A DNA stretch of 64,000 bases, taken from assembly GCA_905178155.1 (NCBI GenBank), contig CAJINV010000005.1:1156392-1220391 (forward strand), read 5' to 3'. This document shows positions 1,045 through 48,657 of this stretch, one piece after another. The position numbers and the translations under genes were made by a program. The DNA comes from Amoebophrya sp. A120 (Eukaryota > Protista > Dinoflagellata). Under the pieces are notes generated by a model. The model had not been told where the DNA came from. It was given only the letters and a program-made list of their open reading frames with translations, and made no database searches. How positions within the stretch are numbered: the first letter of the stretch is position 1; each line of letters opens with the position of its first letter.

Positions 1045-4000
1045 GAGCCTGCAGCACCATCAAGCTTTCTGAACAAACAGCACGGGGGCTTTCCGAAACA
1101 CACTGTCAGAGCGCCAGGTGTGCAATCAGACAACCACGAAGATCTTGTAGCCATTATGGACACGAACCATGATGGCTTTCTGTCCGCAGAAGAAATAAAT
1201 GACGACCAGTGCAACGTGCTAAAACTCGATCAACAGTCTGGCGACGGTGAGAGGAAAATTTCACTCAAGAAGTTGGATTACGCCTGTAGCGATTACTGTA
1301 CCCCGGGTGCGGCTGGTGTGGAGGATCTTGACGAGGACGTGCTCTTGGAAATCTGCCACTGCTGCCCGCCGGAAATGCAAGAAGCATTTTTCCCTTGGTA
1401 CTATGCGAACCGTGAGTACTTGAAGGCGCAGGAGGACCTCGATTTTGCGAAAATGGATGCTGACGATGACGGGCGGCTCATCGCAGACGAGATCCATGAC
1501 GGAATGTGCGACGCGGGAAAAGTCGACCACGAATGGGGCGACGGCGATGGGCAACTTACGGTGAAGGAAGTGCACACTATGTGCGATGCGGTGTGCGTGC
1601 CGGAATCCGCCCTCGAAACGCTTCCCGAGGAGGAACTGATGGCCCTGTGCCACTGCTGTCCGAAAGGTATGCAGGGGCGTTTTTTTGCGCACTATTACGG
1701 AAGAAAAAGCGGCGCTTTTGCGGGGAATCAGGCCGCAGAGGCCAGAATGGCGCTGGACTACTTGGTCTATCGCAACCCGGGAGATGTTGACCACGAAGAT
1801 CTGCAAGTCGCTTCGAGCACCACGACCTCGAACGACAGCGAAGGGGCTGCAGCCCCGTCGGCCTACCAATTTTGCAGCGTAGTGCACATGAACGAGGCGC
1901 CGGTGCGGGTTTGTGGCCGTTTCGACAAGGATGCAAACGCAATCTCCGTGACTATCGCGCGCTGTGTATCCTGTGCAAAAACGTCGTCCCCACACCATAG
2001 TCAAGTTGGGAAATCTGCTAGAGAAAGCAGCCAGCTTTGTTGTTGCGCATGACAAGTTTGGCCTCGATTATAGCTAGCTCAGCAGCGTCACAGGTCTAGC
2101 GCATCGCTCTAATTGGAGCGTCACAAATTCCGAAAAACGAGTACGAAAATTCCTAGCATCATGGGGCTCCGCATGAGAAATATTCTCAGCATGCAGATCC
2201 ATCTGCATATACAACTATGGGGTGGGGACGTTTTTACATAGCATACTACGTGGAGAAGGTAGTCGCGTGGGACCTGACCGACTGCCCGCAGCAGAAAGCC
2301 ACCTGGCAGAACCTGTTTCGGCAGACGTCTGAGAAAACCTACGACAGTTTTTATGGACTGCAAAAATGTCTGGGTCTGGAAGATTCTGACACTTGTCATG
2401 CACGTTTTGCATGAGCCATGATGTCTGTGATGCATCCCCTAGCAATACAGTTTTTTTGAGGGCTTCTTGATGCGTATTCCGCATGACAAATGCCTTCTCA
2501 GCGTAGCAAAAATTGCCTTCCTTTTGGTACTCATGCAATACAATTTTTTTTGGAATCCAAATGCAGCACCATCACAAGTTGCATTCTTCCAGACCCAGAC
2601 ATTTTTACATTTGATAGTTTTTACGATCACGCGTTCGAGCCGCAGTGCAACCTGGTGTCCACGTATGCAAGAAAGGAACTGTGTAAGTGTAACTCCGTAA
2701 AAATGCAGAACATGCAACAGTAGAGTTACACCTGTCATGCCACACGACAAGCATGAAGTCCTCGTTTCATGTGTGTTTTATCCCCTCATAAGGCACCCAT
2801 GACAGGTTATTTTCTCTGTCATGTAGAACAAATTTGTGATGCTGTCAGGGAAAGAAAGTTACACTAACACAGTTTTTTTATTGGATACCACGGACCGATC
2901 CGCCCTGCTGGAGAACGGCAGGCCCGACGTGTATCCTGAGTAAAAATGTCCCCACCCCAGAGTTGTCATGCAGATTTGCGATGACAGGAAGACTTGTAAT
3001 GCGCATCTCCATGAGAGGCAATACCAGTCGTGTTTTGGAATTTGTGATGCTGTGAACAGGATGAGGAGGTGGATTTGTTATGCGGCTTCCCTTGCTAAAC
3101 TGCACTACAATACAGCCTGCAACTTGTCATGCGTGACTCACAAAACTCCTAGGTTTGTGGTGCTAAGTCCCCAACTTGACTCTAGTGTGGGGACGTTTTT
3201 ACTCAGGATAACGTGCAGAAGAGCTTCAACCTGGTCCTGGTGCCGTTCGGCTGGAAGAGCCGCGCGCTGTGGAAGCAGCACACGGAGAGGCTGGTCGAGC
3301 AGCTGGAGCACGACTACCCGCCGCTGAACGCGCGCGAGATGGGCGGCCGGTTGAATTGGCACCGGATCGACGCCTGGCCGAGGTTTGTGGGTTCGGGGGT
3401 CTCCGACTACGAATGCAACGACGTCTATCCAGGAAAAAACACCCATCCCCATCCAATTTGTCATGCAAAACATGCATAAAATACACTATTTGTCATGCAA
3501 AAAATGGATGGGGATGGGTGTTTTTTCCTGGATAACGTCACGGGATGGGACTTCGTCAACTGCTTCTTCGACGCGGACCGCGACTGGTACCGGATCGCAC
3601 GCTTCGCGAACGACCAGTGCAATCGCGAGTACCAGGCCCAGGGTGGATTGGCGCACATGACGGTGCTCGTCCAGGCACGCATGGATCACCGTTCCGAGAG
3701 CGACAACGCGTACGGATTCGCCATGATGTCCTGGAACACCCTATCCTAAGGAAAAACGTCCCCGCCCCAGAGTCAAGATGGGGACTTTGCAACACAAACC
3801 TCGAAGTTTTGGGAGTCATGCATTACAAATTGCAGGCTCTAGTGTAGTAGTTCAGTTTAGCAAGGGAAGTCGCATTACAAATCCATCTGCTTAATATCCT
3901 GTTTACAGCATTACAAGTTCCAAAACATGATCGGAAATCCCTATCATGTGGATGCGCATTACAAATGCTTTTGTGCTTGCAGATCTGCATGGCAACTCTG

Positions 4001-5268
4001 GGGCGGGGATGTTTTCACACAGGATACACCCTGCTGACCCCGGCGGTTCCGGGGTGGAGCTACAAGACCGCGGCCTTATCAAATGTGAAAATGTCTGGGT
4101 CTGGAACGATGTAACTTGTGATGCGCATTTCAGAACACACAAAAATCTCTGATGCATAGGCAGCAAAAGCTGCTCACTTTCTGTCACCAAAGTGGGGGAC
4201 TTGCCATGCGGATTCGGCATTGCGGACGCTTCTCGAAACCTGTGATGCAGCTTCCACGCCAGACCTTCTGTGTCATGCAGAAACAGCATGACTCTTCCAG
4301 ACCCAGACATTTTTACATTTGATAGGCCTCCACGGTCGCCCACGAGCTGGGCCACGCCCTATTCGGCCTGGAAGACGAGTACCATTGGACGACAACCAGC
4401 ACTTTCTTCCCGAATTGCGGCAACGAAAAGTCGCAGTGCAACCGCTGGCTCGACCTGATCGACGCGGGGCTTTCCGGCTGCTACAAAGGCAGCTGCCAGG
4501 AGGAGCAAGGCTACATCGACGGGCCGGAGGTGGACAGCGTCATGGCCTGGTACGGCCGCCAAATGTCGCACAGCCAGAAGCGGATCTCCTGTTGCAAGTA
4601 CTTCAAAGTGCACAAGTTCACGCCTGCCTACTGCGACGTGTACAACCGGACGTATCGCAACAGGACCCTGCAGCGCCCCGTGAACGTCACGGTTCAGCAG
4701 GACGGCTGGGTGGTGGACGAAAGTAAGCACAATCTGGCCGGCTACTACAAGGGCCCGGTGCCCTTGCCGCTGCAGCAGAAGCTGATGGAAACCAGACTGG
4801 CGCCGAGGGTGGTATGGCGTTCTCAAATGTTACATTCTCAACTGTTACATGATTTGTCATGCAAAATTTAAATTGCAAGCAGAATCGATGTGATTAAGCT
4901 GCTGCGCTGCATGATAAATTCTAGAGGAGCCAAACAGGCTGAGAATCTCTCTGTGCCAAATCTGTGATGCGAGACGTGCAAGGTCATCCCTTTTACTTTT
5001 GTCATTCGCGCATCACAGATTCATGTAACAATTGAGAATGTAACAGTTGAGAGCGCCATACATGGACTGGGCCACGGTTTCCGCCGACGGCGTGGTTCAG
5101 CTGGACATCACCTTGAATCCCAAGTCCGAGTTTTATCCGGGCCAGGATGTGGTGCTCGACCTGGCCGGCTTCTGCGACGACCCGGGGCACTGGCGCAACC
5201 AGGAGCTGGACGTGAAAGCCAGTCATCCGCTCTTGGGAAAAGTCGAGTACCCGGACGTGAAAAACTAA
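1..5268 (+). CDS. Zinc metallopeptidase (M64/IgA-peptidase-like) with N-terminal EF-hand/Cys-rich repeats; 5' end outside window; interrupted by 8 TIR introners
   Basis: ORF 19-2052 has repeated MDTDHDGFLSADEI EF-hand-like loops and ICHCC motifs. Removing the 8 elements plus one TSD each gives one frame containing FNLVLVPFGW, TVAHELGHALFGLEDEY (HELGH 4341-4355), and a stop at 5266-5268. Confidence 0.75.
1967..2245. mobile_element. Introner, TIR group B (279 bp)
   Basis: TATCCTGTGCAAAAACGTC...GACGTTTTTACATAGCATA; flanks CTGTG/CTACG (3/5); removal of 284 nt restores frame. Confidence 0.8.
2352..2616. mobile_element. Introner, TIR group A (265 bp)
   Basis: TATGGACTGCAAAAATGTCTGGGTCTGGAAG...CTTCCAGACCCAGACATTTTTACATTTGATA; TSD GTTTT/GTTTT. 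Confidence 0.92.
2664..2887. mobile_element. Introner, TIR group G (224 bp)
   Basis: TATGCAAGAAAGGAACTGTGTAAGTGTAACT...AGTTACACTAACACAGTTTTTTTATTGGATA; TSD CCACG/CCACG. Confidence 0.9.
2932..3210. mobile_element. Introner, TIR group B (279 bp)
   Basis: TATCCTGAGTAAAAATGTCCCCAC...GTGGGGACGTTTTTACTCAGGATA; TSD ACGTG/ACGTG; reverse-complement homolog of 3742-4026. Confidence 0.93.
3426..3534. mobile_element. Introner, TIR group C (109 bp, smallest)
   Basis: Perfect 30-bp TIR TATCCAGGAAAAAACACCCATCCCCATCCA; TSD ACGTC/ACGTC. Confidence 0.95.
3742..4026. mobile_element. Introner, TIR group B (285 bp)
   Basis: TATCCTAAGGAAAAACGTCCCCGCCCCAGAG...CTCTGGGGCGGGGATGTTTTCACACAGGATA; TSD CACCC/CACCC. Confidence 0.92.
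4077..4324. mobile_element. Introner, TIR group A (248 bp)
   Basis: TATCAAATGTGAAAATGTCTGGGTCTGGAA...TTCCAGACCCAGACATTTTTACATTTGATA; TSD GGCCT/GGCCT; interior homologous to 10977-11230. Confidence 0.93.
4813..5060. mobile_element. Introner, TIR group D (248 bp)
   Basis: About 40-bp TIR TATGGCGTTCTCAAATGTTACATTCTCAACTGTTACATGA; flanks GGTGG/CATGG (3/5); frame restored (PRVDWATV). Confidence 0.87.
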
Positions 5269-6903: not shown

Positions 6904-9163
6904 ATGGCTTCCTTCAAGTCTATACCGGTGATTACGCCCTACACCTACAGTTCGAACATGGGTCCGGGCAGCGAGCACGGGGGTCCCTTTTACCCGCTCG
7001 GGCAGCAGTACCACCAGCCTGACATGCTGGCCGACCAGCTGAAGAAGGAGCGAAATCCCCCGCGAGCGGTGATCACGGGCGTGAACACGGACTTCAAGCT
7101 GGACTCCTCTCGCCGGCTGCGGTGGAACGACCCAAAGTCCGGGGTCGTCGACCAGTGTACCATGTACACCTACGGGCAGCCGGACTCTCACCGCTCCTGC
7201 CTATGCATTGCAAATATCGATCTGGGTCTGGAAGGTCGTTGCAAATTGTCATGCTAGTACGGTTGGATCGTGCAAAATAAAAATTTCAATTTGTGTTGCA
7301 TGGCTACCAAAAGTAGTTCGTTGTCCACTTTTATTAAACAAGTTTAGAGGCAGCTTATTCATCTCATGCAGGGGAGGCATGATAGAGATCTCACAGAATC
7401 TTCTGTCATGCTCATGGGCCATGAAATAAAACCAGCATGACCACAAGTCTCGCTATTCTCCAGAAGATCCAGACATATATTTGCAGTTGATACTGCGTCA
7501 CCAGCTACAACAAGGACGGCCTCACGATGAACTCCTTGTCCCACTACAACAAGGTCGGCGCCAAACACCTGCAAGCCCAGTCGCGGTCCAGTCTATCAAA
7601 AGTAAAAATGTCTGGGTCCTCTGGGAACTTGTGATGCTGGGTAGCGTCTCATGATGAGGCTACAAATGCTGGCTCAGCATGACAAGTTTCTGAGCTCCTC
7701 GGTGTTGCCTATTCTGCATGACAAACTGCGTAGTTTCTGCATCACGGAAAAGCGGAGCTGCTCTTGGGTAACGTGCATGACAGATCATTTAAGAGTCATG
7801 CCAGACAAGCATGACAAACATGAACAATTCTTCCAGACCCACACATTTTTACTTTTGATACCGTCCCATCCACTCCTACTTCAGCGAACCGAGAAGAAAG
7901 GTGCCGGACATCGGAACCAAGGTGTGGGATAACTTCGGCATCGACGGCCACATGAAGGCAACGTCAGAGGAGATCGGCAACTGGTCGCCGTTGTGGTACT
8001 TGATAGTGTGAATGAAATTCTCAACTTCTTATTTCGGCGTGCTTTAAATTTGATATTGTTTCCTCTGCGCTTGCTTTCTCTTCCAAACGAAAAACGTTGT
8101 TGATCCGCAACTTGATAGTTGCCCTCGGTATTAGTGCACTTGAAGAAGTTGTCGCAAAATCGTTTATTGAGACGGCGATCCTCGGCCTCGGGCTAAAGCT
8201 AATCCTGAAGAAGTTCTTACAGGGTTCTCATGCGAGAATCTGTTGAAAAAAAATAACCACCAGGTACCGCGCCGTGAACGACATGAACGTGTATGCCAAC
8301 CTGCGACCGGACACCATGAAAGCCCTCGGTCTCGAATACGAGGAGCCGGGCGTCAGATACGGCATGATCAACGGGGAGTTTCTTCCCAAGGTCGAAAAAG
8401 TGAACGATTCCGCGCGAAGTTCGGCGTGGAGCGAGAACCACAAGTACGTGGGGTATCCCAAAGAACCCTCCATGCAGGCCCGGGCCTACTACGGCAACGA
8501 CGCGCGGACCAGCTTCGCCTTGGCCGACGTCCAGAAGTACATGTCACCGCTATGCCACTGCAAACCAATTTGTCAGTCGTGTTTGGGTCGGGATTATTTC
8601 TGGTCATGCGAGTTTATGTAAAAGTACTACAGAAACTTCAACAGGATCTTTATCTTTTGTGATGGTACGAACATAGATAGGACAAGGAGCATTTTTGAGG
8701 GTTATTTCTTCTTGTTTTCTCATGCTGGGCGTTGTACCAATTGCAATAATTTTCCAGACGACATAAAGATACCCCTGAAGTTGTAGTTGTCAAAACAATC
8801 GCAAACTTGTCATGCGGTCGTGGACCACAGAAAGCCTTTGAATATTTCCACTCTGAATAGCTTGTGCACAGCAACACAACTAGAACTACGCTGCATCCTT
8901 TACCCAGACCCAGCAGACAACATGTTTGCAGTGAATAACCGGTCTCCATCGCGAACTCGGACCCCACGTCTCTCCTGCGCGCACAGAAGAACCGGGTTCG
9001 GGAGGAGGTTTTGGCGCAGGTGCGCCGGGCACCGCAGTACGGGAGCCACCGGGGGAGCGGGGGCGGGAGGGCACTGTCCAGCGGAAGGACCGCGTCGACA
9101 ACGCACTCCACACCGAGGGCCGGCGACTTCATGCGGAAGTCCGCCTCCACACCGAGAATGTGA
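6904..9163 (+). CDS. Hypothetical protein; 3 introners plus one GT-AG intron (7996-8263)
   Basis: ATG at 6904 (MASFKSIP). Joining across 7202-7492, 7594-7860, 7996-8263 and 8551-8937 gives a continuous frame ending TGA 9161-9163. No family recognised. Confidence 0.7.
7202..7492. mobile_element. Introner, TIR group A, degenerate (291 bp)
   Basis: TATGCATTGCAAATATCGATCTGGGTCTGGAAG...CCAGACATATATTTGCAGTTGATA; TSD CTGCC/CTGCG. Confidence 0.83.
7594..7860. mobile_element. Introner, TIR group A (267 bp)
   Basis: TATCAAAAGTAAAAATGTCTGGGTC...GACCCACACATTTTTACTTTTGATA; TSD CAGTC/CCGTC; interior highly similar to 39574-39831. Confidence 0.9.
8551..8937. mobile_element. Introner, decayed group A-like (387 bp)
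   Basis: TATGCCACTGCAAAC...TGGGTCGGG and CCCAGACCCAG...GTTTGCAGTGAATA; TSD ACCGC/ACCGG; frame restored. Confidence 0.75.
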
Positions 9164-10621: not shown

Positions 10622-13600
10622 ATGAGCAAAGAACAAAGAATGTGTCTCCGGGCGCAGGCAATGAAAAGGAAAAGCTCAACGACGACCTGTCAAGCCATGA
10701 TTGTCTGGGCATTAGCGTTTTCTTCTCCTCTTGCAGGCGTGCGTGCTTTCCGGTTTCAGCTAGAAGAAGCGAAGCTCCAGCCCTTCGGCACTACCGCTCA
10801 CCGTCATTATTTCGATCGCAAGAACGGAAACAACAAGGACACCAACCTGACCGGTGATGAAGGTTTTGCTGAGAAACGCGAGATGACAAAGCAGCTCGAG
10901 CAGTGTCCTCGTCCCATTGATTGGGACCCTGCGTACGAGATATTTTCCGTCAGGGACATTGCGGAAATGTTAGCGCTATGGATTGCAAAAGTGTCTAGCT
11001 CTGGAACAAGGTTGAAACCTGTGATGCGCATTTCAGAATGCAGAAAAATCTCTCATGCATAGGCAGCAAAAGTCGCCCACTTTCTGTCACAAAAATCAGG
11101 GATTTGTCGTGCGGATTCGGCATTGCGAACGCTTCTCGAAACCTGTGATGCTAGAGCTTCCATGCTAGACCTTCTGTGTCATGCACAAGCAGCATGATTC
11201 TTCCAGACCCAGACATTTTTACATTTGATAAGCGCGACAGCTAAAAATGGGCGGGGTCGACGCAATGATGCAGGCCTTGGCGAAGAGGCTCCAGAAGTTC
11301 TCGACCAAGTCCATGAATGTGGAGTACCATGACCGAGCCGTGTTCGAAGCCATGGTGGGAAAAGCTGCAGACGATGATAAAGCGAACGGCAAAACGGACC
11401 TTGGCAACCTCGGGGCCTACGTGACGAAACTGGCGGCCAAGTGCGCGTGGGTGAAGTTGGTGCGGGGAAGTTCGGGGTGGCAGGAGTGCTTCATATCCTG
11501 AGTAAAAACGTCCCCATACGAGAGTCAAGATGGGAAATGTGCTAGACAAAGGAGCCAGCTTTGGTTGTTTCGCATGACACGTTTGTACTCGTAGTGTAGT
11601 GCTGTTTAGCTAGTTCAGAAGCATCACTTACCTAGCACATCATGCTGATTCTAGCATCACAAATACCAGAACACGACGAGAAAACGCGTCTCATACAGCT
11701 CCGCATGAGAAACTTTTTGGCACGCAGATTTGCGGGACAACTCTGGCGTGGGGACGTTTTTACACAGGATACTTCACGAAGGAGATTTACAAGGTGTACC
11801 AGGAAGCCACTTGGCAAGACGCGAAATGCTACGCGGAAGCGGCGGAACGATGGATCTCTAAGGGAGGACTGTCGGCTGGTGGTGAGGACGAACTACGCAA
11901 CATTACCAGCGTGGACCAGATTCTCGCGTCCGGCGTGGCAGGTGTTGCCAGCAGCAGTGGCACAACTACAACTTCTGGCGCAACAACTGCAAGCTCAAGC
12001 ACGGTGTTGAACAACAAGCCGAGTACAACTGTTGAAACGAAGAAAGCGGAACTGCTTCGCTCGTTCAAAAATGCAGGGTTGGTGCACGACAGTGCTGCTC
12101 TGCCGCCGGAGGACCTAGCGAGGAAGATTTGCGAGATGGAGCTTGTAGCACCGGAAATTTGCCAGAGTGATCATCAAAAAATGGACGACGACGAGGATGT
12201 TAAGGAAGAAGCAGAAGCGCTCGATTCTAACGTTGGCAGGAGGACTTCTTGTTCAGCGGACGTTGAAACAGCCGGCTCTGAAGAAGAGTCCGACAGTGAT
12301 GTTGACAACTGCTCGACGGACTCCGTCGAGGCGGAAGGTGAAGAAGGTCGGGTTCTACAGGATGGACCACGTGGTCCTGGGTCTCCTGCACGAGGATCAG
12401 CTGCCACTCCTCTTGCAGATGCCCTCAACCTTGTGAAAGGTCCGCAGAAACGGGCGTCTGCGAAAGCTAAAGGCTGCATCGAATTCCGATCCGACATGAT
12501 GAGCCCGCAGTGGATGTTTTTTCTGGACAGTGAAAACAAGCAGGGGTTTCTGACCATCCGGGGTACGGTTTACCTTGACGACTGGAATACGAATTTCAAC
12601 AGCTCGGGGGATCGGGCCAGCCCGGTGTACGCGGAATACAAGCATTCTATGCCCGCCGCAAAGTCCGCGTTGTCGATGGGTACGAACCCAGAGGAGGAGA
12701 AGGAGTTGGGACCCTTTTTGATGCTGCACAAAGGTTTTTACGACCGCGCGGCCACGGCAATCATGGAACTGGAGGTGGAGTTGTGGAAGCAGAGCAAGAA
12801 GATTGCGCAACAAGAACAGCGCGTGGCCGAGGAGAAGATGAGCAAAGACGAAGGAGGTCGTGATGAGGATGATGGAGCAGGTACTAGTGGTAGTGAACGT
12901 GAACAAACGGTGGAAACCGAAACGGCTCCTGTGATGATCCGCGATTCCACGAGCAACTGCGATCCAGCCGACGAGGAAGTACTCGCTTTCGAAAAGCAAG
13001 CGGGGACAGAGAGTCACAAAAGCGACGTGTTCCGGAATTTCGCGGAAGAAAAAACTTACCTGGAAAAGCGCCAAACCAAATTGCCGACCTGCTTTGTCGA
13101 ATATCTGAAAAAAAACATCGCAACTAAAATCTCCGACAAGCTGTTCCTCCAGGGCCACTCGTTGGGCGGCGCCGCGGCATTGGTGATTCACCGTCTGAGG
13201 GAAAAGTCCGACCTATTGCAAGCGATGACGAACAACTCTGCCGGGAAAAAGATCCACACGAACGCGTTCTCCGCGCCCCCAATGTTCACGTCCGGGTCGC
13301 CGGAGCAGGCAAAGCTGGCTTTTGTGTACCTCGCCACCGGGAAACTCGCCAACTGGGCGCTGGATGTAAACCGCGTGCTTGCGGGCGACTACCGCTGCTC
13401 CTGGCTTGAGGAGCTCGCGACGGAGTTTCCGGACGGTGACTTGAATAAACAGGAGACTATATTGTGGAAGAACTCCACGAACCTGTTTTTCAATTTCGAC
13501 TTTGTGCCCCGGCTCGCGTTCATGAACGTGCAGAAGGAGCAAATTGTCCTCCCGCCCGTAGAGAAAGTTTTCTGGCTTCGCGACACCGCGCCCGCGGGGC

Positions 13601-26300: not shown

Positions 26301-29300
26301 ATGCTCGCCGAGGCTCTTTCTTCCGGCGCGCAGACCCGGCGGCGCGTTCTGTCTATCCAGAGCCACGTGGTTCACGGTTACGTCGGTAACAAATCCGCGA
26401 TCTTCCCCCTCCAGCTCCTCGGCTTTGACGTGGATCCGATAAACTCCGTGCAGTTTTCCAACCACACGGGCTACCCGTCTTTTTCCGGGGATATTTTGAA
26501 ACCGGATCAGCTCTGGTCGTTGTTCGAAAAACTGCCACAGCTCCAAGTCAAGTACTCCCACGTTCTAACCGGCTACATCGGCAGCAGGCAGTTCTTGGAA
26601 ACGGTCGGAAAAATCGTGGCCGAACTCCGGCAAAACGCGCCGGAGCTGATTTACGTCTGCGACCCGGTTTTGGGCGACAACGGGAAGTTTTACGCGCCGA
26701 AAGACTTGGTTTCCGCGTTCCAAGACACCATTTTACCCCTCGCGACAATTCTAACCCCGAACCAGTTCGAGTGCGAGCAACTGACGGGGATGAAGATCGA
26801 GACTTTGCAGGACGCCTGTGCCTGCTGCGACAGGTTGCACGAACTCGGGCCGCCGCACGTGTTCGTCACTTCTCTCGATATCTTCGCCGAGTCGGAGGGG
26901 GTGATCACCATGTTGTATTCCTCGAAAAGTCCGGTCGTGATTGAGCAAAATCTTGAGGAGTCTGAGGGTGACGAAAATAAAGCAGAATCCGAGCTGTCCT
27001 CTACCGCGGTCAGCCCGGGGAACAAGTACTTGCTGAAACTCCCTTTATTACATTTCGCCGCCGCGGCCAGTCCGAGCAGGAAAAGCTCAACGCATAGCCA
27101 TCTTGTTCCGGGGGAACAACAGTCCTCCGGAGTTGTAGCAGAGAAGGAACTATCAAATGCAAAAATGTTTGGGTCAGGAAGAATGCAAGATTTGTGAAGC
27201 AGTTTTTCCATGACCCATGAGGCCTGGAATGCAGCACCTAGCATGACAAACCCTGTGAGGTGTTTATCATGCCTATCCTGCATGAGAAACTCCCTGTCAA
27301 ACTGGTCAAAAGTGGACATCTTTTGGTAATCACGCAACGCAAATTTTTGCATGCTTCAGATTCAGCATGACAAGTTCCATGCTTCCAGACCTGGACATTT
27401 TTGCATTTGATAGAAACCACCGACCACGGGAACCGGGTTCACCGGCACCGGGGATCTCTATTGAGAGGAAAAATCTCCCCTCCCCATATCGAAAAGGTAT
27501 CTTTCCGAAAATTTGCGTTGCTGATTTGAGGTCACAAATCACATTGCTCTTGCAAGAAGACAAGGGCAGAAGCTTCCGCCCCATTATGGAAGCGATTTGT
27601 CATGCTGTTGGGCCTAAAGGTCAGCCGTTTGCAATGCTGAACAACTAGACCCATACGCCCCTATCTAGCCAGGGGATCTGGCCGCAATGCCTTCCTGCAA
27701 TACAAATCAGATTTGTGTATGCAAATCCAGCATCACAGATTTCCTTTTTGATATGGGGAGGGGGGATTTTCCCTTTTCATAATCTCACGGCCGCGCTTCT
27801 GCTGGCGCGGACGTTTGAGCATCCGTGTGAACTCCCGAAAGCGTTGGAGTTGGTCGGCGCCAGCATGCAGGCGGTGCTCGAGGAGACAGCCATGCGCGGG
27901 CGGCCGCGAAGATTGAGTGTCTGCTCGTCCTATCAAATGCAAAAATGTCTGGGTCTGGAAGAATGCAAGACTTGTCATGCATATTTCTCATGACCCATGA
28001 TGCCTGTAATGCATGACCTAGCATCGCAGACTTTTAGGGGGCTCCCTGATGCACCTTCCGCATGAGAAGTGCCCTGTCCGTGTAAGCACAATTTGTGCCT
28101 CTCTTGCTGGTCATACAGTACAAATTTTTTTAGAGTCCAAAAACAGCATGACAAGTTGCAATCTTCCAGACCCAGACACTTTTGCAGTTGATACGTCCTC
28201 CAACTTTGGCCCGGCGGCGAGGAAAAGTTTCTCCGCGTCGGAAACAGCAAAACTAGAAGCACCTGGTGCACCACCAGCCCCCGCGGCTTCTTCACCCAAG
28301 GTGGGGCCTACTTCAGGAGCAGCTCCGCCACCTGTCAGTAAGAAGCTCGTGCCGCCGGAGATCCGGCTGATTCAGTCGAAAGCGCAACTGGAAAGACCGA
28401 CAGTTGTGCACTACTGCAGGCGGATCGGGCAGAACTTAGGCATCAAGGCCGTCGCTTTCGACATGGACGGAACTTTGACGCTCCCACACCAGATCGATTT
28501 CAAGAAACTTCGGACGATGATCGACGCCCCGCGGGATTCGGACATCCTTGGCTACGTGAAAAGCATCGAAAGTGAGGAGAAGCGCAGAACCTTAACCGAA
28601 ACGATCGAAGCCGTGGAGTTGGCCGGGAAATACGAATTGCAGCCGGGCATTGTCGAGGTGCTAAAGGAATTGAAAAAGAAGGGCTACAAGCTCGGACTGA
28701 TCACGCGGAACCACTTGGGCGGTGTGGAAGTGTTTTTGAAAGAACTTGAGAAAAAGTGGAACAGCAGCTGCACAGCGGCACTACCTGACATTCGCGTCGT
28801 CGCACCAGCAGGGAGTGGTCTTACCACCACGGGTGGCTACGGCTATCCCGAAGACGGTGCTGGTTTGGGTCATCCTGATGCAGGCTGTGGCAGAACAAGT
28901 ACTGTCGCGATCTCCAGCGGCTTATCGTCCGTGACGTCCTCTGCCGGAGGCGGACCGTCCCCTCCGGAATCTGCTTGTCCGGTGGATCCAAGAGAGTCCG
29001 CGGACTCCGGGTCGTTCTCCATACCGACATCCGCGGCCGGTGCGACGGGGAACGGCCACGCGAAGGAGCACGACAAGAATGCTGGCGGTGGACCAAACGC
29101 ATCACAACATGACTCATTTCCTTTCAAGATCTTCGACGGGATTCGGACCCGCGACTCCCCGGTCGCCCCAAAGCCTAGCGGGGAGGCGATCCGCGACCTG
29201 TGCGAGAAGGTGTTTGGTTGCGATCCAGAGGAGGTCCTGATTGTTGGTGACCACGTGGACGACGTGCGGTGCGGGGAGGACGTCGGGGCTTGGACGTGCG

Positions 29301-30981: not shown

Positions 30982-32989
30982 ATGTTCCGTTCCGTCTACG
31001 ACCAGCTCACCGCAGCGAGCTCCTTCCCAGCAACCTCGTTTCATCTCCTCCCCAGCGACCCAGCGAAGGCTCGTCACACCGGTCTTCTTGACAACTACGT
31101 GGCTCACACCAGAACAGCAGGGGAGTATGATGCAGACGATGCTGCGTTTCTTGGAGCTCAGGGCGTTGGCTCCTACTCCTTCGGTTTCTCATCCTCCTCA
31201 ACGAGCAAAACCTGGCACGACCACAATCACAGGCGAAATCATCTTCACAACAGCAGGATAAAAACCGCCTTCAACGAGTCGCCGACGTTCCAGATCGTCT
31301 CCGGGATCACCGCCGCAAAGGAGCACTGCCTCGTCGCCGACGCACCGGACCGCGATGGGACAGGCTTGTACCGAATGTTTGTCGGATGTGTCTGTGATGC
31401 GAGGCACGAAGTACTGGATGCTTGTTTCATGCATAAATTACTTGCAGTTGCACTGCAGTTCCTTTCCAGTTTCACTCAAATAAGACAAATCCAAAAATAA
31501 AAAACTCTTCCACAGCCATCTCGCCCCGTGTGATGATCAAGTGAGGAAGATGAACGGCCACGAACTGTATCGGTTCATGGACAACGGGGCGCTCTACACA
31601 CTGATGGGCAAAAAGTGCATGACCCTGGAGGACGGCAAGGTGACCGCTTCCGGCGGGTCGGTGACGCTGCAAGACTGCGACGCGGCAACCGCTGCGTCGG
31701 ATGGGCGCGCGTTGTGGGAACCCATGCCGAGCTCGCAGCTGAAGGTGGCGAAGGTCGGGGACTACTGCTTGTCCATGGGGCCGGAAAAGGCGTCGATCGG
31801 GGAGGTATAGAATCGTGAATAAGAGGAAGAGAGACCAAAGCTAGTGTTGCAGTTCCAAATGAAGGTTGCATGATTCATTGGCTTTTTCATGCTGGATCGA
31901 AGTTGTTCTTCTTCTTTTTTCACAAAAAAATTGATTCTCGTGAAAACCCCCTCCGCAGACCAACCTGATCAAGGGCAGTAGCTCCATCGACGCGTCCAGT
32001 AGCAACGGCACCCACACCGCAAAAATGATTGCCGACGGAAACGACTCCACGTACTGGGCCAGCGATTGGGACCCTAGCGAGCCGGAAACGGTGACGATAG
32101 GTATAAGAGGTGAAGAGCGATTCGTCATGTACATGCTGTGCGTATGACATACAAAATTTTTTTCGCAAATTTTTTCTTCATTTCAACTAACCTCACACCA
32201 AAACATTCAGATCTCGGCAGTTCGCAGAAGCTTTCAAAAGTGGACATTGACTGGGAGTATCCGCCAAAATCTTTCTCTATCGAATCCTCCTCCGACGGAC
32301 ACCACTTCAGTTCCTGCAACCGCGTGAATTTCAACGACAAGTGGACGTACCACATGCCGGGACGGGCGCTGAAAGCTCGGTACCTGCGAATCAAGATGCA
32401 TGAAACGCACCCGACGCTGGGCCAACACAAGGAATCGGGCAGACACCTGTATGGAATCCAGCACGTGCGCGTCGTCACTATCAAATGTAAAAATGTCTGG
32501 GTCTGGAAGAACGCAACTTGTCATGCTAAATCTGAAGCATGCAAAAATCTGTATTGCATGATTACCAAAAGTCGTTGAGTTTTGACCAAGTCGCGAGGGA
32601 GTTTCTCATGCGGGATAGGCATGAGGGAGATCGCACAGAATCTGTCATGCCAGGTCCTGCATTCCAGACCTCATGGGTCATGGAAAAGCTGCGTGACAAA
32701 TAGCGCATTCTTCCAGACCCAGACACTTTTGCATTTGATAGTCACCCGGGCGTTACAACCCATTCTTCAGAAGTGCAGCGACGCAGCCCGGAGTGCGGAT
32801 GCGCGGGACAAATGGTTTCTCGTCGAGGTCACTGAGTTCAACCCGTGCAAAAACCCGAAGCTGGATTTACCCCCGCAGGGCGTGCCGCAAACGACGCAGT
32901 TCGCGGGCAATGAGGAATCGAAGGACGGGCAGAAGATGGATGTCAGTGGGGTGCCAAGCAAGGAAATGATGTCGGCGGCAGAGGAATGA
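30982..32989 (+). CDS. Ricin-B-like plus F5/8 type C (discoidin) domain protein resembling alveolate CCp/LAP modules; start uncertain
   Basis: GT-AG introns 31368-31515, 31805-31958, 32101-32210 and introner 32479-32740 join into one frame with SQLK...DYCLS, ADGNDSTYWAS, IDWEYPPKSFSI, DARDKWF. Confidence 0.65.
32479..32740. mobile_element. Introner, TIR group A (262 bp)
   Basis: TATCAAATGTAAAAATGTCTGGGTCTGGAAG...GCATTTGATA; TSD GTCAC/GTCAC. Confidence 0.93.
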
Positions 32990-33635: not shown

Positions 33636-35546
33636 ATGATGTCGCTGTTTCTCTTGCTCTACTCCTCAGTTTTCCTTCCGGCGGTTCTCACATCTGCTTT
33701 CAAAATCGCGCCTCTGGGTGTCACCGAAGCCGACTGGAACCGAGGGAAGCCGAGTTTCTCCGCCAGTGTGAAGCAAATTTACGACAGCGCGGTGTTGAAA
33801 GCTAACAAGAATGCCAAGATCGCGGCACAAGCTTCTAGCGGTCTTGTTGTCAAAAACAAAAATGCCGCGACGGCCAGCTCGGTTGGTGTCGTGCAGAATC
33901 ACATAAACAAGCAGGCGGCAGCGCATCTCACCGCGGTCAAGGATGCTTACGTGAACACGGTGAGGAATAATTCTGCTGCGAAGCCAAAGGAGAAATCCGC
34001 CACAGTGACTGCGCAGAAGAGAGAACCTGTTCTCGTACGGAGAACGACCAGCGCCGGGAACAAGGCCTGGAGTGCCAGCGGGCCAACAGCAGTAGCGGAT
34101 GCAAGTGCGGTTGGGGGGAACAAGGCAAAGGCACGGCCAGCCGCCAAGAACCCGCGTGGACAAGCTGCTGCTCCGGTTGTGACAGTCAGCAAGATCAGCA
34201 CCGGTGTGGAAGGACAAGTCAAGAAAACGGCTGCTGCGAGTTCATTATCTGCTAAAAAAGCCAATACTCAAACTCAAAGCGACGGCCCGGTCCAAACAGC
34301 AAAGGAGTACGAGGAGGATTTTCCCGTCGACGACGCGAACCAGAATTCTTCGGCGGCGAGCACCACCGTGAGTAGTGGTAGTCCATCTTCTGAGGCCGAA
34401 ACTCCCACAGTCGAGGAAGAAAAACCAGTTCTCACGAAAGACGGAATTCCGGTGGACGCCAAGCCGGAGGAGCACAGCGCGGTGACAGCGAGTACCAAGA
34501 ATGCAGCGGATGCCAAGGCTGACGTTGTCGCCAGCGGCGCAGCGGTGGCGGCGAAGGAGGAGCAGGTGGAGGAGATGAAAGGGAAACAAATCAGCGCGGA
34601 AACTTCGCAGGCCACCGCGGCGAGTGATGTCTCGAACGCGCAAGACAGTCTGGCCGCGGAGAAGCAAAACGCGAATGCCGAGCAACTGGAATATTCCGAC
34701 GCGCAGGCGAACGTCGCGGCGAAAAAGGAGGAGCTGCGTGTTGCCACGGAAATTGCGGAAGCGGCGCGCAAGGAACTGGAGGAGGCAAACAAGAGATTAG
34801 AGGAGGCGACGGCTAGAGTAGCCTTCGCGGAAAAGCTATCCTGAGGAAAAACGTTCCCACCCAATAGTCAAGATGGGAAATCTGCTACACAAATCCCCAA
34901 GCTTTGGCTGTCGCGCATGACAAATTGTGGCTCGCTGTGTAGTCGTGTTTAGCTAGTGCAGCAGCATATCAGATCCAGTTTGTCATGCTGATTCGAGCAT
35001 GACGAGTCTCAGATCACAACGAGAAAACGCCTTTCATGAGTCTCCGCATGAGAAACATTTTAAGCATGCGTTTTAGCATTACAACTCTGGGGTTGGGACG
35101 TTTTTACACAGGATAAAAGCAGCTGAAGAAAGCGGAAGATGAAGCGAGGTCGGCGACCGCAAACCGCTATCCTGTGCAAAAGTATCGTACTCGTAGTAAT
35201 TGCAGTCCTGCAATACAAATTTTTTTCTCAAGGTAAATCTGCATGACAGATTTTATTTCTCGTGCTGAGGAAATTTGTATTGCATTTATACGAGTGCGAT
35301 ACTTTTGCAATGCATAACCGCGAAGCGGCGGAGGCCGCGCTTTTGGCCGCGCAAAAGGCACTAGAGCAGGCGAAAGAGGTGGAGTATTTGGCGGAGCAGG
35401 ATTTGGAGGCCCTCAAACAGCGGATCATCGACCGGATCGAGGGCGAGAGAAGTTCCGCGGTGGGCAGATGGGGTGGCAGTGCACAGCTGTTTGGAACTAC
35501 GAGCTTGATGATCGCGATTGGCTTAGTAGGGTTTGGCTTCTGGTGA
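33636..35546 (+). CDS. Probable secreted/surface Ala-rich coiled-coil protein with C-terminal hydrophobic (GPI/TM-like) tail; 2 introners
   Basis: Signal-peptide-like MMSLFLLLYSSVFLPAVLTSA; coiled-coil continues across both elements; ends LMIAIGLVGFGFW*. Confidence 0.72.
34837..35115. mobile_element. Introner, TIR group B (279 bp)
   Basis: TATCCTGAGGAAAAACGTTCCCAC...GGGACGTTTTTACACAGGATA; TSD AAAGC/AAAGC. Confidence 0.93.
35168..35316. mobile_element. Introner, TIR group F (149 bp)
   Basis: TATCCTGTGCAAAAGTATCGTACTCGTA...TACGAGTGCGATACTTTTGCAATGCATA; TSD ACCGC/ACCGC; related to 56700-56849. Confidence 0.9.
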
Positions 35547-39000: not shown

Positions 39001-39971
39001 TATGGTTTGCAGCCAAGCCACAAAGCGGAGTCTGAAGTTCGTCCGGAGGCCTCGTCACAGAAGCGTGCTGCGGTTGCAGAAGTAGATCAGAGCCAAAAAT
39101 TAGCGCAGGCTGGTACTGTACCAACTACAACGAGCTTGCAACGGGAGATGAGCAACTCCTCGGCCAAGAATCTCGAAACCAGCACGACCATGAACCTTGT
39201 CGACAGTGAGGCGAGCACCGAGAAGATAAAGTCGCGCTGCGTTGTCCGCACGACACACACACACTCCCTGAAATCCTTATTTGGGAACATTAACGAGAAC
39301 CGGTTTATTGGGAATGCAACGGCGAATACGACAACATCGAATGGCGCGGTGTCCTCCTCATCGTCCCGTTTCATGAACAATAAAACCAACACACATTTCA
39401 CCACCACCGCACACCACGCGCAGATGAATCATTGTAACCAAATTTCAACAACATCAAACACCTTCGCCCCGCCGCCCCGCACGCTCTATGCGTTCCAGCC
39501 GTCGCCCGACGATGAGCAAGAGCCACCGGAAGACTCGCCGCTGGACCCGACCGTGTTGCAATTTACCACGCCGTATCAAATGCAAAAATGTCTGGGTCTG
39601 GAAACTTGTGATGCTGGGTGGCGTCTCATGATGAGGCTACGAACGCTGGCTCAGCATGGCAAGTTTCTGAGCTCCTAGGTGTTGCCTATTCTGCATGACA
39701 AACTGCGCTTCTGCATCACAGCAAAACGGAGCTCATCTTGGGTAACGTGCATGACAGATTTAAGAGTCATGCCAGACAAGGAGCATGACAAACATGAATT
39801 CTTCCCGACCCAGATATTTTTACAGTTGATACGCCGGTACAGGCCAACCCGGATCCGCACTCGAGATTGGAGAACGCGCTGGCCAGTGCAGAGCAGCAGT
39901 TGCGAAAAACGAAGACGCGAGGATTTTACAACACCAATGTCAAGGCTACCTCGCCTGTTTTCTCGAATTAG
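36094..39971 (+). CDS. Hypothetical Ser/Thr-rich coiled-coil protein
   Basis: Predicted GT-AG introns 37402-37543 and 37803-37915 plus introner 39574-39831 link three long ORFs; TAG at 39969-39971. Confidence 0.65.
39574..39831. mobile_element. Introner, TIR group A (258 bp)
   Basis: TSD CGCCG/CGCCG; interior nearly the same as 7594-7860. Confidence 0.93.
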
Positions 39972-40855
39972 AGCGCTTGGAGATGTGTTTGCCGAGGCCG
40001 CGAGGTTGTAGTTCATGAACTTGCTTGCTAGAAAATGAGAAACCATATTAAACCAACTACACGAGAGCACGGTCGCACCTTCACATCTGTGTGAGCGTGA
40101 TCCGTTCCCGAGAGCGTTTAGTGATTGTGTTCTTTGTACCCCAACTTCTTCATTGTTGTCGCCGAATATTGTCGTAGTCGTTCACCTTTTATTTTCACTT
40201 TTTCATACTTGTTAGTATGAGTCCGGCAGTATACTATGAATGAAAATCCAAGGGATTCGGTGAACTGGTACTATCGTCAAAATGAAAATGAAAAAGCGTA
40301 TGCATCCTTTGGAAAGAAGATGTTTACGTACACGATAAATTCAAAGATCTCCCTCAGCGATCTTTAATACGGATTGATAAATAATTATGATGGCGAGTAA
40401 ATATTTACATGTTGTCACTCGTTGTCTCGGTCGGTCTGCAAAATAGATACTACGAATGTGACCACGCAAATAATACAGACAAGCGGATCTTCTCCCCTCT
40501 GTAGCTTTACCCACCGCAAAAAATTTTGATCTCGAAACGTCAAAAGTGGATCAATACAAGGTCTTCATCTCGAGCAGGTGGAATTCGGTCGTTGGGACTT
40601 CTGTAGAAGGCGCGCATTGAGACGCCTACTGCTCTCTGCCGAGCAGAGTAGAGAATTGAGATCTGCACGCTGCCTTCCGAGCTTTCTGCTCACCCGCCGA
40701 ATGGCCAAGCATCAAAAGGGATAACCTACAAATGTCTTTCGGAACAACCACAGCAACACTCTTTTTTGGAGCGTAGTTTCGAAGAACGCGATCTGCGTTC
40801 GAATTGGAAGTAAAAGCGAAGGAGCATTTTCATTCTGCTTGCTGTAAGTAAACGA

Positions 40856-45714: not shown

Positions 45715-46086
45715 ACAGGCCAACCCGGATCCGCACTCGAGATTGGAGAACGCGCTGGCCAGTGCAGAGCAGCAGTTGCGAAAAACGAAGACGCGAGGAT
45801 TTTACAACACCAATGTCAAGGCTACCTCGCCTGCTTTCTCGAATTAGAATAGATAGAACATTGGGAGATGTGTTTGCCGAGGCCGCGAGGTTGTGGAAAG
45901 TTCACGAACTTGCTATAAAATGAAAAACCATATACCAACTACACGAATTCACGGTAGCACCTTCAGATCTGTGTGAGCGTGATCCGTTCCCGAGAACGTT
46001 ATGATTGTGTTCTTTGCGTTTGCACCCCAAAAATTTCTTCATTGTTGTCGCCGAATATTGTCGTAGTCGTTCACCTTTTATTTTCA
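45715..46086 (+). repeat. Dispersed duplicate of 39839-40197 (last exon and 3' flank of the 36094-39971 gene)
   Basis: ACAGGCCAACCCGGATCCGCACTCGAG...GTCGTAGTCGTTCACCTTTTATTTTCA is near-identical at both loci. Confidence 0.9.
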
Positions 46087-47145
46087 GTTCGCAGAACAGT
46101 AGCGTCAGCGTGCATTTGAAGAGTCTTCTTTGCGTTTGAGGCGAATAGAATTAGAAGCGGTGGAACTGTGAAGCGAGAAATATCGCGATCCTTTCTCCCG
46201 ATTGCGCAGACAAAACTTGAGTTGATACGGAAAGTGTCAAAGCGATGGATTGTGGTAAGGTGCACTGGTTCTGATTAGATTCTGAACTGCAAGACTTTGA
46301 GCGGGGCGAAACCGAATGTCAAAGAAAAAGGCTGACGATAGGTGTTGGGGCAATTACGCAAGAGTCGCGAACATTTTCGCTCTTGTTGTTTCCGTCTCGT
46401 GCTACAATTTCAATCATAGAAAACCAAAACCTAAGAGAACTACAAAGAAAGAATTTCCAGCTGTAGAGTGTGGACGATCTCGCGAAATCGACCTAGACTC
46501 AGCTGAACACGACAAAAAAAATCACGTGAAAAATGAACCCAACGTTTCAATCCTCGGTGTTTGGCTCGGGGCCTGCGCCGGGCCCAATCCCGGGTGGACC
46601 GATGACGGGGTCAAATCAGGCAAGCTCTTCGCAACGGGTAGCCAACATGCAGACTTACCAATCCAGCGTGTTTGCGGACAACTCGCCGAAACGTAAAGGG
46701 CTATAGCTAATAAAAATCACTAATTTTTAGTGCTTTGCGTGCAAGGGAAATCAAGTTGGCTCCTCATGATTTGTATTTGGCACGACAGAGCGAGAGGAGC
46801 TTACTTCTGTCTGTGCGGCTGCATTGATTCTGGAAGATTTTCTACTTTTCCGTCCGCATGATATTATTAAAGTCCGATCTGAAATTGTGACAAAAAACAG
46901 GAAACGTCGCGACGCGTCCCACATCTAGCGGCGTCACCCGAACGACGAACAACATTTTTACTGAGCCGCAACCTGGCTTGAATGAGCCAACCAGCATGCA
47001 CGCCTGGTTCGGAAAGGGCAAAAAGACGGAGGAATGTAAGGACTGAGTTTTTTTAATACAACCAATTGCTGTTTGCAACACATCAACAAGTTTACGCTTC
47101 GAAGCGTTTTGCGTATGACAAACGGAAATCTTCACGAAATCTATC

Positions 47146-48657
47146 ATGACAGCCTGCCGTTCCGAGTTCACGGGCTACGTGAGGTCCGTAGACAAGGACA
47201 AACTTCAATCCGAACTTCTCTCTTCTGACGGGCACGCAGCCCCCTGCCATAGGAGGAAACCCTTCGCCGACGCGCGCTACCAGAGCAACATCAGGACGCT
47301 TGGCGCCGACGAGATGCCGAACGTGGAAACGAAACTGGACCGACACCTGGTGTCCGATGGCGTCAAGGGGAGTCTGCGCATGAGCGCGAGCCCACTCCGC
47401 GGGGAGAGGCAAGCGGCGCAGCAGGCAGCAGCAGTGCGGGAGCCGATCGATATTGCGCCAAGTTTCAGCGAAGACTCCATGACGTCGATCTACTATGCAA
47501 TAAAAAAAGATTGTAGCTGTAAGTTTGTGTTGATGCGCTAAGTACATGTGTTAAGATGATTGCGTCTCATGCTGGTCATGCATTGCAGGACCAGGAGTCA
47601 ACTCAAGCGCGGTTTCACGTGCTATTTGCGCAAGACAGGTTTTTGCTGTCATGCCAAACAGATTTGTAATGCTGGCCAGCCAAAATCAAAAAGTTACACC
47701 TACGATCTTTTTTTCTTTGATTTCTACCCGAACGCGACGAGCATACACAAGAAGAGGACGGTACACAATTTAATTTGATTTGTGCACCACGAGGATGAGC
47801 ATGCATCAGAGAAAATGCTTATGCTGCATTGCATGCTGGGGTAACGACCACAACAATTTTTCGTTTCAAAAATAATCTCCTCAGGTGAAGCACGAACACA
47901 CCCCATACGCTCACAGCGAGGAGTTTACCATGCTCAAGCAAGAAGTCCGCGACTTCAACGACGGCGTTCCGCCCTCCATGCTCAGTGGCAGCTATGCAGC
48001 AGGAGGGTATTTTGTAGTTTCTATGTTTTCCACTTTCACTCTCAGAAGTTCACCTCAATCCGCATGCCATGGTGTCATGACTGTTGGTTGATGTGGGCTT
48101 TTTTGGCACCGGGGGTATCTATTACTTTGTCACAGCAGCGCCGACCCCTCACCATCCCTCCGCGGCGTCCCGCATGGCTACCAAGACTATTACAACCCAA
48201 ACCTGGTGGAACGGAGCACGTTGTTAGACCATAACCCGACGCGATCGAGCGCGCCGGTGGAGTCAGAGTCGTCGAAAACGGGAAAAAAGCTGATTCCGCA
48301 GCCGGAGAGGTTACAGGGCAACCCGGACGCGCTGATGCACGTCGGACGTATTACTTATCCGATTCGCTTAGCCTTAGCCTTACTAATGTTGGTGCAATCA
48401 AATTTTGGGTCTACTTCGCATGACAGACGCATTAGGTTACTTTATGAAAGTCTAGCATGACAGGCTGCAAGAACAGTAGAGACTTAAGAAGAAAAAACGC
48501 ATCAGATGGCCTCGGCAGCGGGCCGGAGGCGGTACCGAGAAAAAACTACCATCTAATGGTCCACCAAGCCCCCTTGCGCGGCGACTACTCCCGACAAGTC
48601 ATCACGCGGTACGAGCAGAGCCCAGCGAGCAAGGGACAGCAGGATTTGTTTCACTAG
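47146..48657 (+). CDS. Hypothetical protein; 1 introner plus GT-AG introns; start uncertain
   Basis: Introner 47494-47722 and introns 47761-47884, 48007-48135, 48348-48505 give a continuous frame to TAG 48655-48657. Confidence 0.6.
47494..47722. mobile_element. Introner, TIR group G (229 bp); right end ATT
   Basis: TATGCAATAAAAAAAGATTGTAGCTGTAA...TTACACCTACGATCTTTTTTTCTTTGATT; TSD TCTAC/TCTAC. Confidence 0.85.

Follow-up and report, generated by a model that had tools for sequence, protein, structure and literature searches.

Why should transposon-like elements with different ends carry one and the same short motif in their interiors, and at which stage of their life would it act? The question arises in a stretch of 64,000 nucleotides from Amoebophrya sp. 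A120 (contig CAJINV010000005.1, positions 1,156,392 to 1,220,391; analysed as a whole and called the window hereafter), where co-oriented protein genes are broken up by short elements with terminal inverted repeats (TIRs). Judging from their end pattern and family lengths, these are probably introners of the type published for Amoebophrya A120 (Farhat et al., 2021, PMC7789003; Gozashti et al., 2025, PMC12130899). The smallest of them, 109 bp long and located at 3426-3534, gave rise to the original prediction that an internal motif, TGT(C/G/A)ATGC, is a common binding site for either a transposase or a factor that marks the elements for removal. Our reading, to which we assign a probability of about one half, is that TGT[CGA][AT]TGC is a half-site, accompanied by an inverted partner 15 bp on and by a same-strand copy 31-33 bp on in all 18 sampled families, and that it forms a double-stranded DNA site for one shared dimeric or tetrameric protein that would serve mobilisation and, after insertion, removal from or tolerance in the host transcript. 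The binding of a protein, DNA as its substrate, an integrase-type transposase at the ends and a marking role after insertion are the parts of this reading that we infer.

The Minimal Element and Its Relatives

The 109-bp element is the minimal case of the module, as it consists of two TIRs and one 32-bp pair of half-sites. The 30-bp TIRs are perfect (position 31 differs) and occupy 3426-3455 on the plus strand and 3505-3534 on the minus strand; the left one shows a TAT tip, an A-rich stretch at bases 11-15 and family-specific bases 17-30. On either side stands ACGTC, the target-site duplication (TSD), with its upstream copy at 3421-3425 and its downstream copy at 3535-3539 (both plus strand). 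The sequence TTTGTCATGCAAAA is found at 3457-3470 and 3489-3502, on the same strand and 32 bp apart. Within it, the half-site TGTCATGC lies at 3459-3466 (plus strand), 33 nt from the tip, and again at 3491-3498 (plus strand), 32 bp past the first. A degenerate inverted partner occupies the +15 position at 3474-3481 on the minus strand (GCATAAAA on the plus strand). The earlier description of this element as two perfect 30-bp TIRs plus two motif copies is borne out by the sequence; the two orientations also claimed for the motif exist across elements, not within this one, both of whose copies share a strand. Retention of the element would place a stop in the host frame, and transcript contigs of two runs (X3 and X4) join 3420 to 3535, the element and one copy of the duplication being gone.

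Related elements were collected with a motif-blind detector, which requires a T[AG]T start with a matching end, a 5-bp flanking repeat and aligned ends. It found 28 elements in the window, and a 29th (47494-47722), whose 3' tip is mutated, was added via its RNA joints. A held-out sample of 146 loci (545 kb), collected by a TIR-pattern scan and skewed to the two families that carry the search pattern, 0 and 1, yielded 324 further elements; the 77 named loci represent one assembly, and no false detection occurred in 260 kb of shuffled loci. The 352 elements cluster into 18 families of at least two copies and 26 singles. All 36 family ends begin with TAT, as set by the design of the detector, and carry A at positions 11-15 at 0.72-0.94, with families 6, 7, 8 and 12 deviating. 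TIR bases 17-32 sort into eight groups. The TIR families are not wholly unrelated, as had been supposed earlier, since the TAT tip and the A-rich positions 11-15 are common to all; the families probably form one superfamily.

Among 413 full-length copies found by alignment, 376 have TAT...ATA termini and 306 have a duplication matching at 5/5 bases. Target duplication is confirmed by a paralogue at 16-19 kb, which lacks two elements and has a single copy of each 5-mer at the empty sites: the family-0 element at 10977-11230 is missing near 16.8 kb (one AGCGC), and the family-3 element at 11494-11771 near 17.0 kb (one CTTCA). The tandem paralogues at 10.6-14.1 kb (two introners) and 16.2-19.5 kb (none) form a clean presence/absence pair. 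Each of the 28 detected elements, once spliced out, falls inside a long open frame. Sequencing depth in run X1 is about 42 on single-copy DNA, 3,777 at position 3483 and up to 343,861 in bins, which indicates that the 109-bp interior is present in about 90 close copies and the main family in thousands.

Enrichment and Geometry of the Motif

The strict form of the motif, TGTNATGC, has 74 matches in 28 of 28 detected window elements (7,425 bp; 9.97/kb), 41 of them forward and 33 reverse. Elsewhere in the window, six matches fall in the coding proxy (42,046 bp) and five in the remaining non-coding DNA (14,219 bp), whose GC content is the same (43.8%); two of these 11 lie in the 29th element. The impression gained by eye that the motif is sparser in exons and intergenic DNA was therefore correct (0.14-0.35/kb). 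Enrichment over a composition-matched background, which had been set beforehand as a test, was also found: 500 dinucleotide shuffles of the interiors gave a mean of 2.0 and a maximum of seven matches. The held-out loci contain 973 matches in 79.6 kb of detected elements (12.2/kb), 340 in 28.5 kb of BLAST-matched copies and 131 in the remaining 353.9 kb (0.37/kb). For 115 outside matches of these loci the +15 partner is still present (z 4.9), and several lie visibly within decayed elements. Ten RNA-confirmed GT-AG introns hold three matches in 3,521 bp, eight of the ten having none.

Two GT-AG introns do carry strong half-sites. One, at about 31369-31515 and recognised from sequence, has TGTGATGC at 31393 and a near match 32 bp on; the other, RNA-confirmed at 48348-48505, has two copies of GCATGACA 37 bp apart. 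Both are possibly introners turned canonical introns.

De novo motif discovery by expectation maximisation recovers the motif. The two-strand version collapsed to a symmetric matrix, and an oriented matrix was used, the site being asymmetric (TGT..GCA type 52, TGC..GCA 5, TGT..ACA 1). On the 18 family consensus sequences it describes 94 sites as [AA][TC][TC]TGT[CGA][AT]TGC, so that the form first proposed is recovered with one relaxation, T as well as A being tolerated at position 5. The arrangement of these sites is highly regular. Same-strand sites 31-33 bp apart form 27 pairs against 3.15 expected, 16 of the 18 families have such a pair, and none of 5,000 random placements reaches 27 pairs in any spacing window. 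Over the 94 anchors, offsets peak at +15 (z 10.0), ±32 (4.8 and 6.1), -17 (6.4), -35 (6.0) and +47 (3.8), and also at -66. The unit is thus a dyad, made of a half-site, 7 bp and an inverted half-site, which is repeated 32 bp on; the full module is symmetric and 55 bp long (forward sites at 0 and 32, reverse sites at 15 and 47), usually with two or three strong half-sites.

Thirty-two base pairs correspond to three turns of B-DNA, and dimeric DNA-binding proteins need just such an arrangement, in which half-sites separated by 7 bp form a dyad that recurs after three helical turns. A periodogram over all distances peaks at 10.5 bp, strongly so in its raw form. The 32-bp pair is firm, and wider helical phasing is suggestive. 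Equally suggestive are clusters in the distance of the first site from the tip (32-33, 40-44 and 53-55 nt within a range of 32-55 nt), as intermediates occur and the two ends of an element are not independent. The sites had been described as often lying just inside the TIRs; they are not confined to the TIR edges and fill the whole interior.

Conservation Between Families and After Insertion

The presence of one module in 18 families might simply reflect shared ancestry of the interiors. A motif-masked alignment test had little power, and a motif-preserving shuffle (sites fixed, rest shuffled) was used instead, whose power is in turn limited by the fact that about two thirds of the interior stay fixed. 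Under this test 10 of 153 family pairs are still similar, which leaves ten interior groups. All ten have the 32-bp pair, and a single representative per group still gives 15 pairs, compared with 2.0 expected and a maximum of eight. The spacers are barely alike between families (0.41 vs. 0.36 at random). Changes mapped on trees show that the invariant motif bases of families 0-14 evolve at 0.21 of the interior rate on internal branches and at 0.44 on terminal ones; for families 2-14 the values are 0.18 and 0.43, and TIR bases 17-28 stand at 0.32 on internal branches. Because the pair is kept in ten unalignable groups and the motif changes slowly, at 0.2-0.4 of the neighbour rate, descent without selection is rejected, and the earlier caveat that common descent might wholly explain the motif does not hold.

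Decay after insertion was gauged with small private insertions. Of these, 165 are private, 34 double and eight triple or more, against 175, 32 and 7 expected; this sharing fits independent events, so private insertions date copies after insertion. In the 413 full-length copies, with trinucleotide context adjusted and bases near gaps excluded, the slope of rare substitutions relative to the interior is 0.40 (interval 0.05-0.99) for the motif and 1.14 (0.67-1.89) for TIR bases 17-28. Across TIR bases 4-28 the ratios are 0.96-1.18, and the TAT tips reach 0.33, a value that is unstable within families and when single families are dropped (0.41-1.10). The difference between motif and TIR is robust within families, at four rarity cut-offs and in five leave-one-family-out sets; their slope ratio of 0.32-0.37 lies below all of 150 neutral simulations. 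At least one intact site is kept in 412 of 413 copies, and private 3-bp insertions taken together strike the cores at 0.58 of expectation (P 0.009). We regard the signal of conservation after insertion as moderate and not unanimous.

The spacing itself may follow a different rule. In the 109-bp family, two of seven copies have their sole pair stretched to 35 or 38 bp, and the flanking frame, judged from the sequence, is closed unless these copies are removed. Exact spacing appears dispensable after insertion; it seems to matter mainly for spreading, and the half-site sequence also afterwards. The element would then split into a part used only for jumping, the TIR body, and parts seemingly needed later, the tips and half-sites, and such a split would show how a transposon becomes harmless enough to invade exons.

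Excision and Strand Indifference

Removal without GT-AG borders is seen for 18 of the 29 window elements, nine times as a direct joint and nine times by exact length, where the exon length (82, 46, 98 and 222 nt) accounts for the gap in the contig to the nucleotide. The contigs come from runs of one study whose RNA nature was guessed; the same contigs skip ten GT-AG introns and so derive from transcripts. Imperfect duplications set the cut after duplication base 2, 3 or 4, as in the joints 4809 to 5063 and 8545 to 8938. The 29th element (family 11), whose 3' tip is mutated to ATT, is still exactly removed in four runs (47488 to 47723), and an ATA tip is therefore not strictly required.

Orientation of the module relative to the host gene is about even, family 0 inserting 48:48. 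The host strand was called for 303 copies; on its own training set, the 21 window copies with a call, the caller made no error. Rare motif changes amount to 119/5255 at sites that appear in the RNA as UGUNWUGC and to 115/4796 at sites that appear as the complement (p 0.69). Two family-3 elements illustrate the point: the copy at 2932-3210 has six forward sites only, with three 32-bp pairs, and the copy at 3742-4026, inserted in opposite orientation, has seven reverse sites only, and both are removed from one transcript, as its length indicates. Equal conservation on both strands, together with the removal of both polar copies, excludes a simple single-strand signal. A single-stranded intronic splicing signal of the branch-point or enhancer type was rejected on the same equality and on the random orientation.

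A Proposed Shared Protein on DNA and Its Alternatives

Under the reading proposed here, an integrase-type transposase would work at the ends, where TIR bases 11-28 would form a site specific to each family, and the module would be bound, as double-stranded DNA, by one shared protein. Selection would act on the geometry of the module during transposition and on its occupancy later on, because elements so marked would be removed from the transcripts or tolerated in them; the marking might consist, for example, in the recruitment of a non-canonical excision machinery during transcription. Of the original prediction, the putative common binding site is supported by enrichment, geometry, strand indifference and conservation; the prediction named either a transposase or a removal factor, and the data suggest both stages. 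They do so because conservation is strong on transposing lineages and continues after insertion while the inner TIR decays.

A number of results weigh against this reading. No cognate autonomous element, transposase or binding protein was found in the window or in the 545 kb of loci. No 32-bp pair is present at threshold in 79 of 352 elements, several of which are removed from RNA, and length changes are no rarer in the 32-bp spacers than between other sites. The 10.5-bp phasing between rigid modules (P 0.013-0.024) is not significant with ten independent representatives. A clock based on TSD mismatches gives slopes of 1.57 for the motif and 1.97 for the TIR with a very wide interval and does not reproduce the slower decay of the motif; insertions with a clean 2-bp-duplication signature strike the cores at 0.77 of expectation (12.4 vs. 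16.2, P 0.18); and one of six early neutral simulations reached a bootstrap P of 0.01. Only 7 of 413 copies were called non-exonic, too few to tie the constraint to exon location, and a protein-covered site might simply mutate less. Finally, motif bases predicted to be paired in RNA are better kept than open ones (97/4455 vs. 33/1004), which fits a contribution of RNA duplexes.

Several of these points would sit well with a pure mobilisation signal, which we consider possible, if rather unlikely. Multiple internal transposase-binding repeats are known from IS21 (IstA), Mu and Tn7 (PMC10122671) and from En/Spm, Sleeping Beauty and P elements (as cited in PMC9921582); in IS21, whose duplications also measure 5 bp, two direct repeats at a distance of 23 bp are required (PMC10122671). 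The module would then hold sites for a transposase or helper, its slower decay would reflect low mutability under bound protein or an unsampled history of transposition, and removal would work via tips and TIR stem alone. Like those repeats, the half-sites are short, lie inside the ends at fixed spacing and are conserved on transposing lineages (here 0.18-0.21). The constraint is indeed strongest on internal branches, window elements without a pair as well as aged copies are removed from RNA, the stretched pairs of the 109-bp family seem to be tolerated, clean-signature insertions hit the cores at a near-neutral rate, and the TSD clock is uninformative. However, the sites studied here lie outside the TIR proper, extend over the whole element in both orientations, are common to different TIR groups and are kept after insertion. 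The free decay after landing that would be expected of transposase repeats was not observed, the slope of the motif being about a third of that of the TIR, a result that the noisy TSD clock did not reproduce. An unsampled history should moreover shield TIR bases 11-28 too, which are constrained on internal branches yet decay freely with age. Transposase sites usually track the TIR, whereas here one motif is common to eight TIR groups.

The proposed reading can also be taken a step further than the data, towards introns that are defined on DNA. A sequence-specific protein on double-stranded DNA, possibly a domesticated part of a transposase, would occupy the modules of tens of thousands of introners, from where it would hand the non-canonical excision machinery to the passing transcript. 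We offer this as speculation and hold it to be doubtful. If true, it would explain exact removal in either orientation in an organism where U1 small nuclear RNA (snRNA) was not found.

Alternatively, the module could act as an RNA duplex, in that pseudo-palindromic copies pair in either orientation and a protein reads the helices, or needs them to bring the ends together for excision. The predicted fold of the 109-nt RNA is a single rod in which the two motif copies are paired (z -13.3). Motif bases are predicted to pair more often than other interior bases (0.78 vs. 0.61), the paired ones being the better conserved, and complementarity at both variable bases is seen in 16 of 69 intact dyads, compared with 8.9 expected. 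The remaining 53 lack it, and pairing of motif with motif varies from 0.00 to 1.00 between families, with values near zero in family 3, so that a common fold is lacking. Pairing would require neither one sequence in all families nor a spacing of 32±1, and the periodogram peaks at 10.5, not at 11. The TIR stem, which is the best-paired region of the RNA, is itself unprotected (changes at 271/7975 paired and 18/532 open bases). We therefore judge an RNA duplex to be distinctly unlikely. Four matches to microRNA hairpins in Rfam, all far below the gathering score, were dismissed as a product of this stem.

A protein with anti-silencing or chromatin-opening activity, similar to VANC of the VANDAL elements, would keep element-laden genes transcribed and take no part in excision. 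It would account for a DNA-type geometry, for strand indifference and for selection after insertion into exons, and it overlaps with the tolerance that our reading allows for. VANC of Arabidopsis binds a short motif that stands in dense arrays in the non-coding DNA of its elements (PMC5735166). As in that system, a short and dense double-stranded DNA motif in non-coding element DNA would benefit the element after insertion. VANC motifs, on the other hand, are family-specific and derive from tandem repeats in the same orientation (PMC5735166); the motif described here is universal, based on dyads and fixed in its spacing, and is surrounded by spacers that are barely alike. This makes the explanation very improbable. 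Common descent of the interiors without any function, to which the ten related family pairs and the shared tip might point, is next to incredible and largely refuted by the ten groups that keep the 32-bp pair with no further similarity and by the slow change of the motif.

Relation to Known Elements and Introns

The elements themselves are already published; what the analysis adds is a module that different TIR groups of these introners have in common and that appears to persist once they have inserted. With the elements described for A120 they share inverted repeats in which TAT is followed by seven variable bases and then by an A-run, as well as short direct repeats at either boundary, non-canonical removal and a large number of families (PMC7789003; PMC12130899), and the published family lengths (about 106, 149, 209, 256-261, 278, 305 and 320 bp) match those found here (PMC12130899). 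The published text, in the passages covered, differs in that it describes only the ends. An internal motif, dyad or spacing is absent from these passages of both papers and a word search of the PMC7789003 supplement gave no hit for one; for PMC12130899 the comparison covered 38 of 58 A120 supplement rows. Searches of the openly accessible literature found no description of the motif, the exact-word search giving only unrelated papers.

With regard to the putative transposase, the 810-bp A120 family 38 provides a lead, as it is listed with '5-bp TSD, TA/TA termini' and integrase-like homology (PMC12130899). Ginger and IS3EU/GingerRoot elements likewise combine short TIRs with integrase-type target duplications, and TDD-4/5 make 5-bp duplications (PMC2836005; PMC10045372). 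The termini of Ginger1 and Ginger2 are TGTNR (PMC2836005), in contrast to TAT...ATA here; those of IS3EU/GingerRoot are TA..TA (PMC10045372), as in the present elements, but their duplication is usually 6 bp long, compared with 5 bp here at both empty sites and RNA joints.

Another point of comparison is Euglena, whose nonconventional introns are abundant, lack GT-AG borders and have paired ends (PMC12501133). There, paired CDG/CHG sequences lie 3-6 nt from the boundaries (PMC12501133), whereas the motif lies 32-55 nt inside and forms a DNA-like lattice. In Amoebophrya, more than 60% of introns lack GT-AG ends, U1 snRNA was not detected and no transposase was found in A120 (PMC7789003). In the passages covered, that paper leaves open how introns without GT-AG ends are removed and what moves the introners. 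A universal internal module offers a defined bait with which to look for the putative protein. It also supplies a variable, read from the sequence, that can be compared with intron retention in existing RNA data.

Other Introners and Further Observations in the Window

The first 5,270 bp of the window hold a tandemly repeated, EF-hand-rich coding region, followed by a gene in which 3.1 kb contain eight introners. Once spliced, the frame of this gene stays open over 1,096 codons; it shows an HExxH stretch and a sub-threshold match to Peptidase_M64. Besides the elements already described, this part of the window contains an aged family-3 copy at 1967-2245 (TSD 3/5), family-0 copies at 2352-2616 and 4077-4324, a family-5 copy at 2664-2887 and a family-7 copy at 4813-5060, which has no 32-bp pair at threshold and leaves the joint 4809 to 5063; transcript length fits removal of the copies at 2352, 2664 and 4077. 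Farther on, transcript length fits removal of the aged copy at 7202-7492, with eight private insertions and no intact pair, and of a family-1 copy at 7594-7860, and the strongly decayed introner at 8551-8937 corresponds to the joint 8545 to 8938.

The middle of the window holds family-0 copies at 27151-27412, 27931-28193 and 32479-32740, a family-4 copy with three pairs at 27459-27781, a family-3 copy at 34837-35115, a family-2 copy at 35168-35316 and a family-1 copy at 39574-39831. Towards its end, transcript length fits removal of a family-12 copy (55943-56213) and a family-2 copy (56700-56849), and direct joints exist for copies of family 1 (56360-56614; 56354 to 56615), family 14 (57765-58075; 57758 to 58075), family 6 (58138-58450; 58132 to 58451), family 9 with three pairs (58487-58798; 58481 to 58799) and family 0 (60035-60299; 60029 to 60300). 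The last introner, at 61785-62122, is an aged family-4 copy with nine private insertions and an ACA 3' tip. Decayed fragments outside exons, at 61096-61238 and 51037-51063, resemble families 16 and 2.

In some introners of the held-out loci, simple repeats or unrelated inserts bring the length to 0.5-1.1 kb, with both ends and half-sites kept (L016 505-1608, L067 6024-6995, L044 3862-4492 and L069 8961-9456). Twelve open reading frames from five long copies, three of the enlarged ones included, gave no Pfam match, and viral contigs gave no match to the TIR pattern. Two longer candidates were rejected: a 6.2-kb TAT...ATA candidate in L065 is a chance pairing of inner palindromes from two family-2 copies, and a 1,031-bp candidate in L060 consists of two copies with a common duplication.

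The private insertions peak at 3 bp (128, compared with 32 of 2 bp and 34 of 4 bp), and deletions show no such peak. Among the 128, 55 are a 2-bp duplication around one extra base (11% by chance) and 23 a perfect 3-bp duplication (6% by chance). They have no target preference and resemble a distinct footprint of repair or excision in non-coding DNA. Large indels common to at least five copies comprise 11-bp deletions in families 0 and 1 (at consensus positions of about 219 and 189; nine and five copies) and a 4-bp deletion in family 2 (five copies). The 11-bp deletions amount to about one helical turn, tolerated in lineages that went on spreading.

Three further features concern the window at large. 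The 1,974-bp GT-AG intron at 50080-52053, in what we take from its translation to be an electron-transfer-flavoprotein-like gene, holds two extra copies of the preceding exon end, at about 50943 and 51859, with repeated DNA between them. The window closes with more than 300 bp of pure CCA repeat at 63690-64000. A segment at 39841-40200, about 350 bp long, which comprises a gene end and downstream DNA, is duplicated 6 kb away at 45723-46090.

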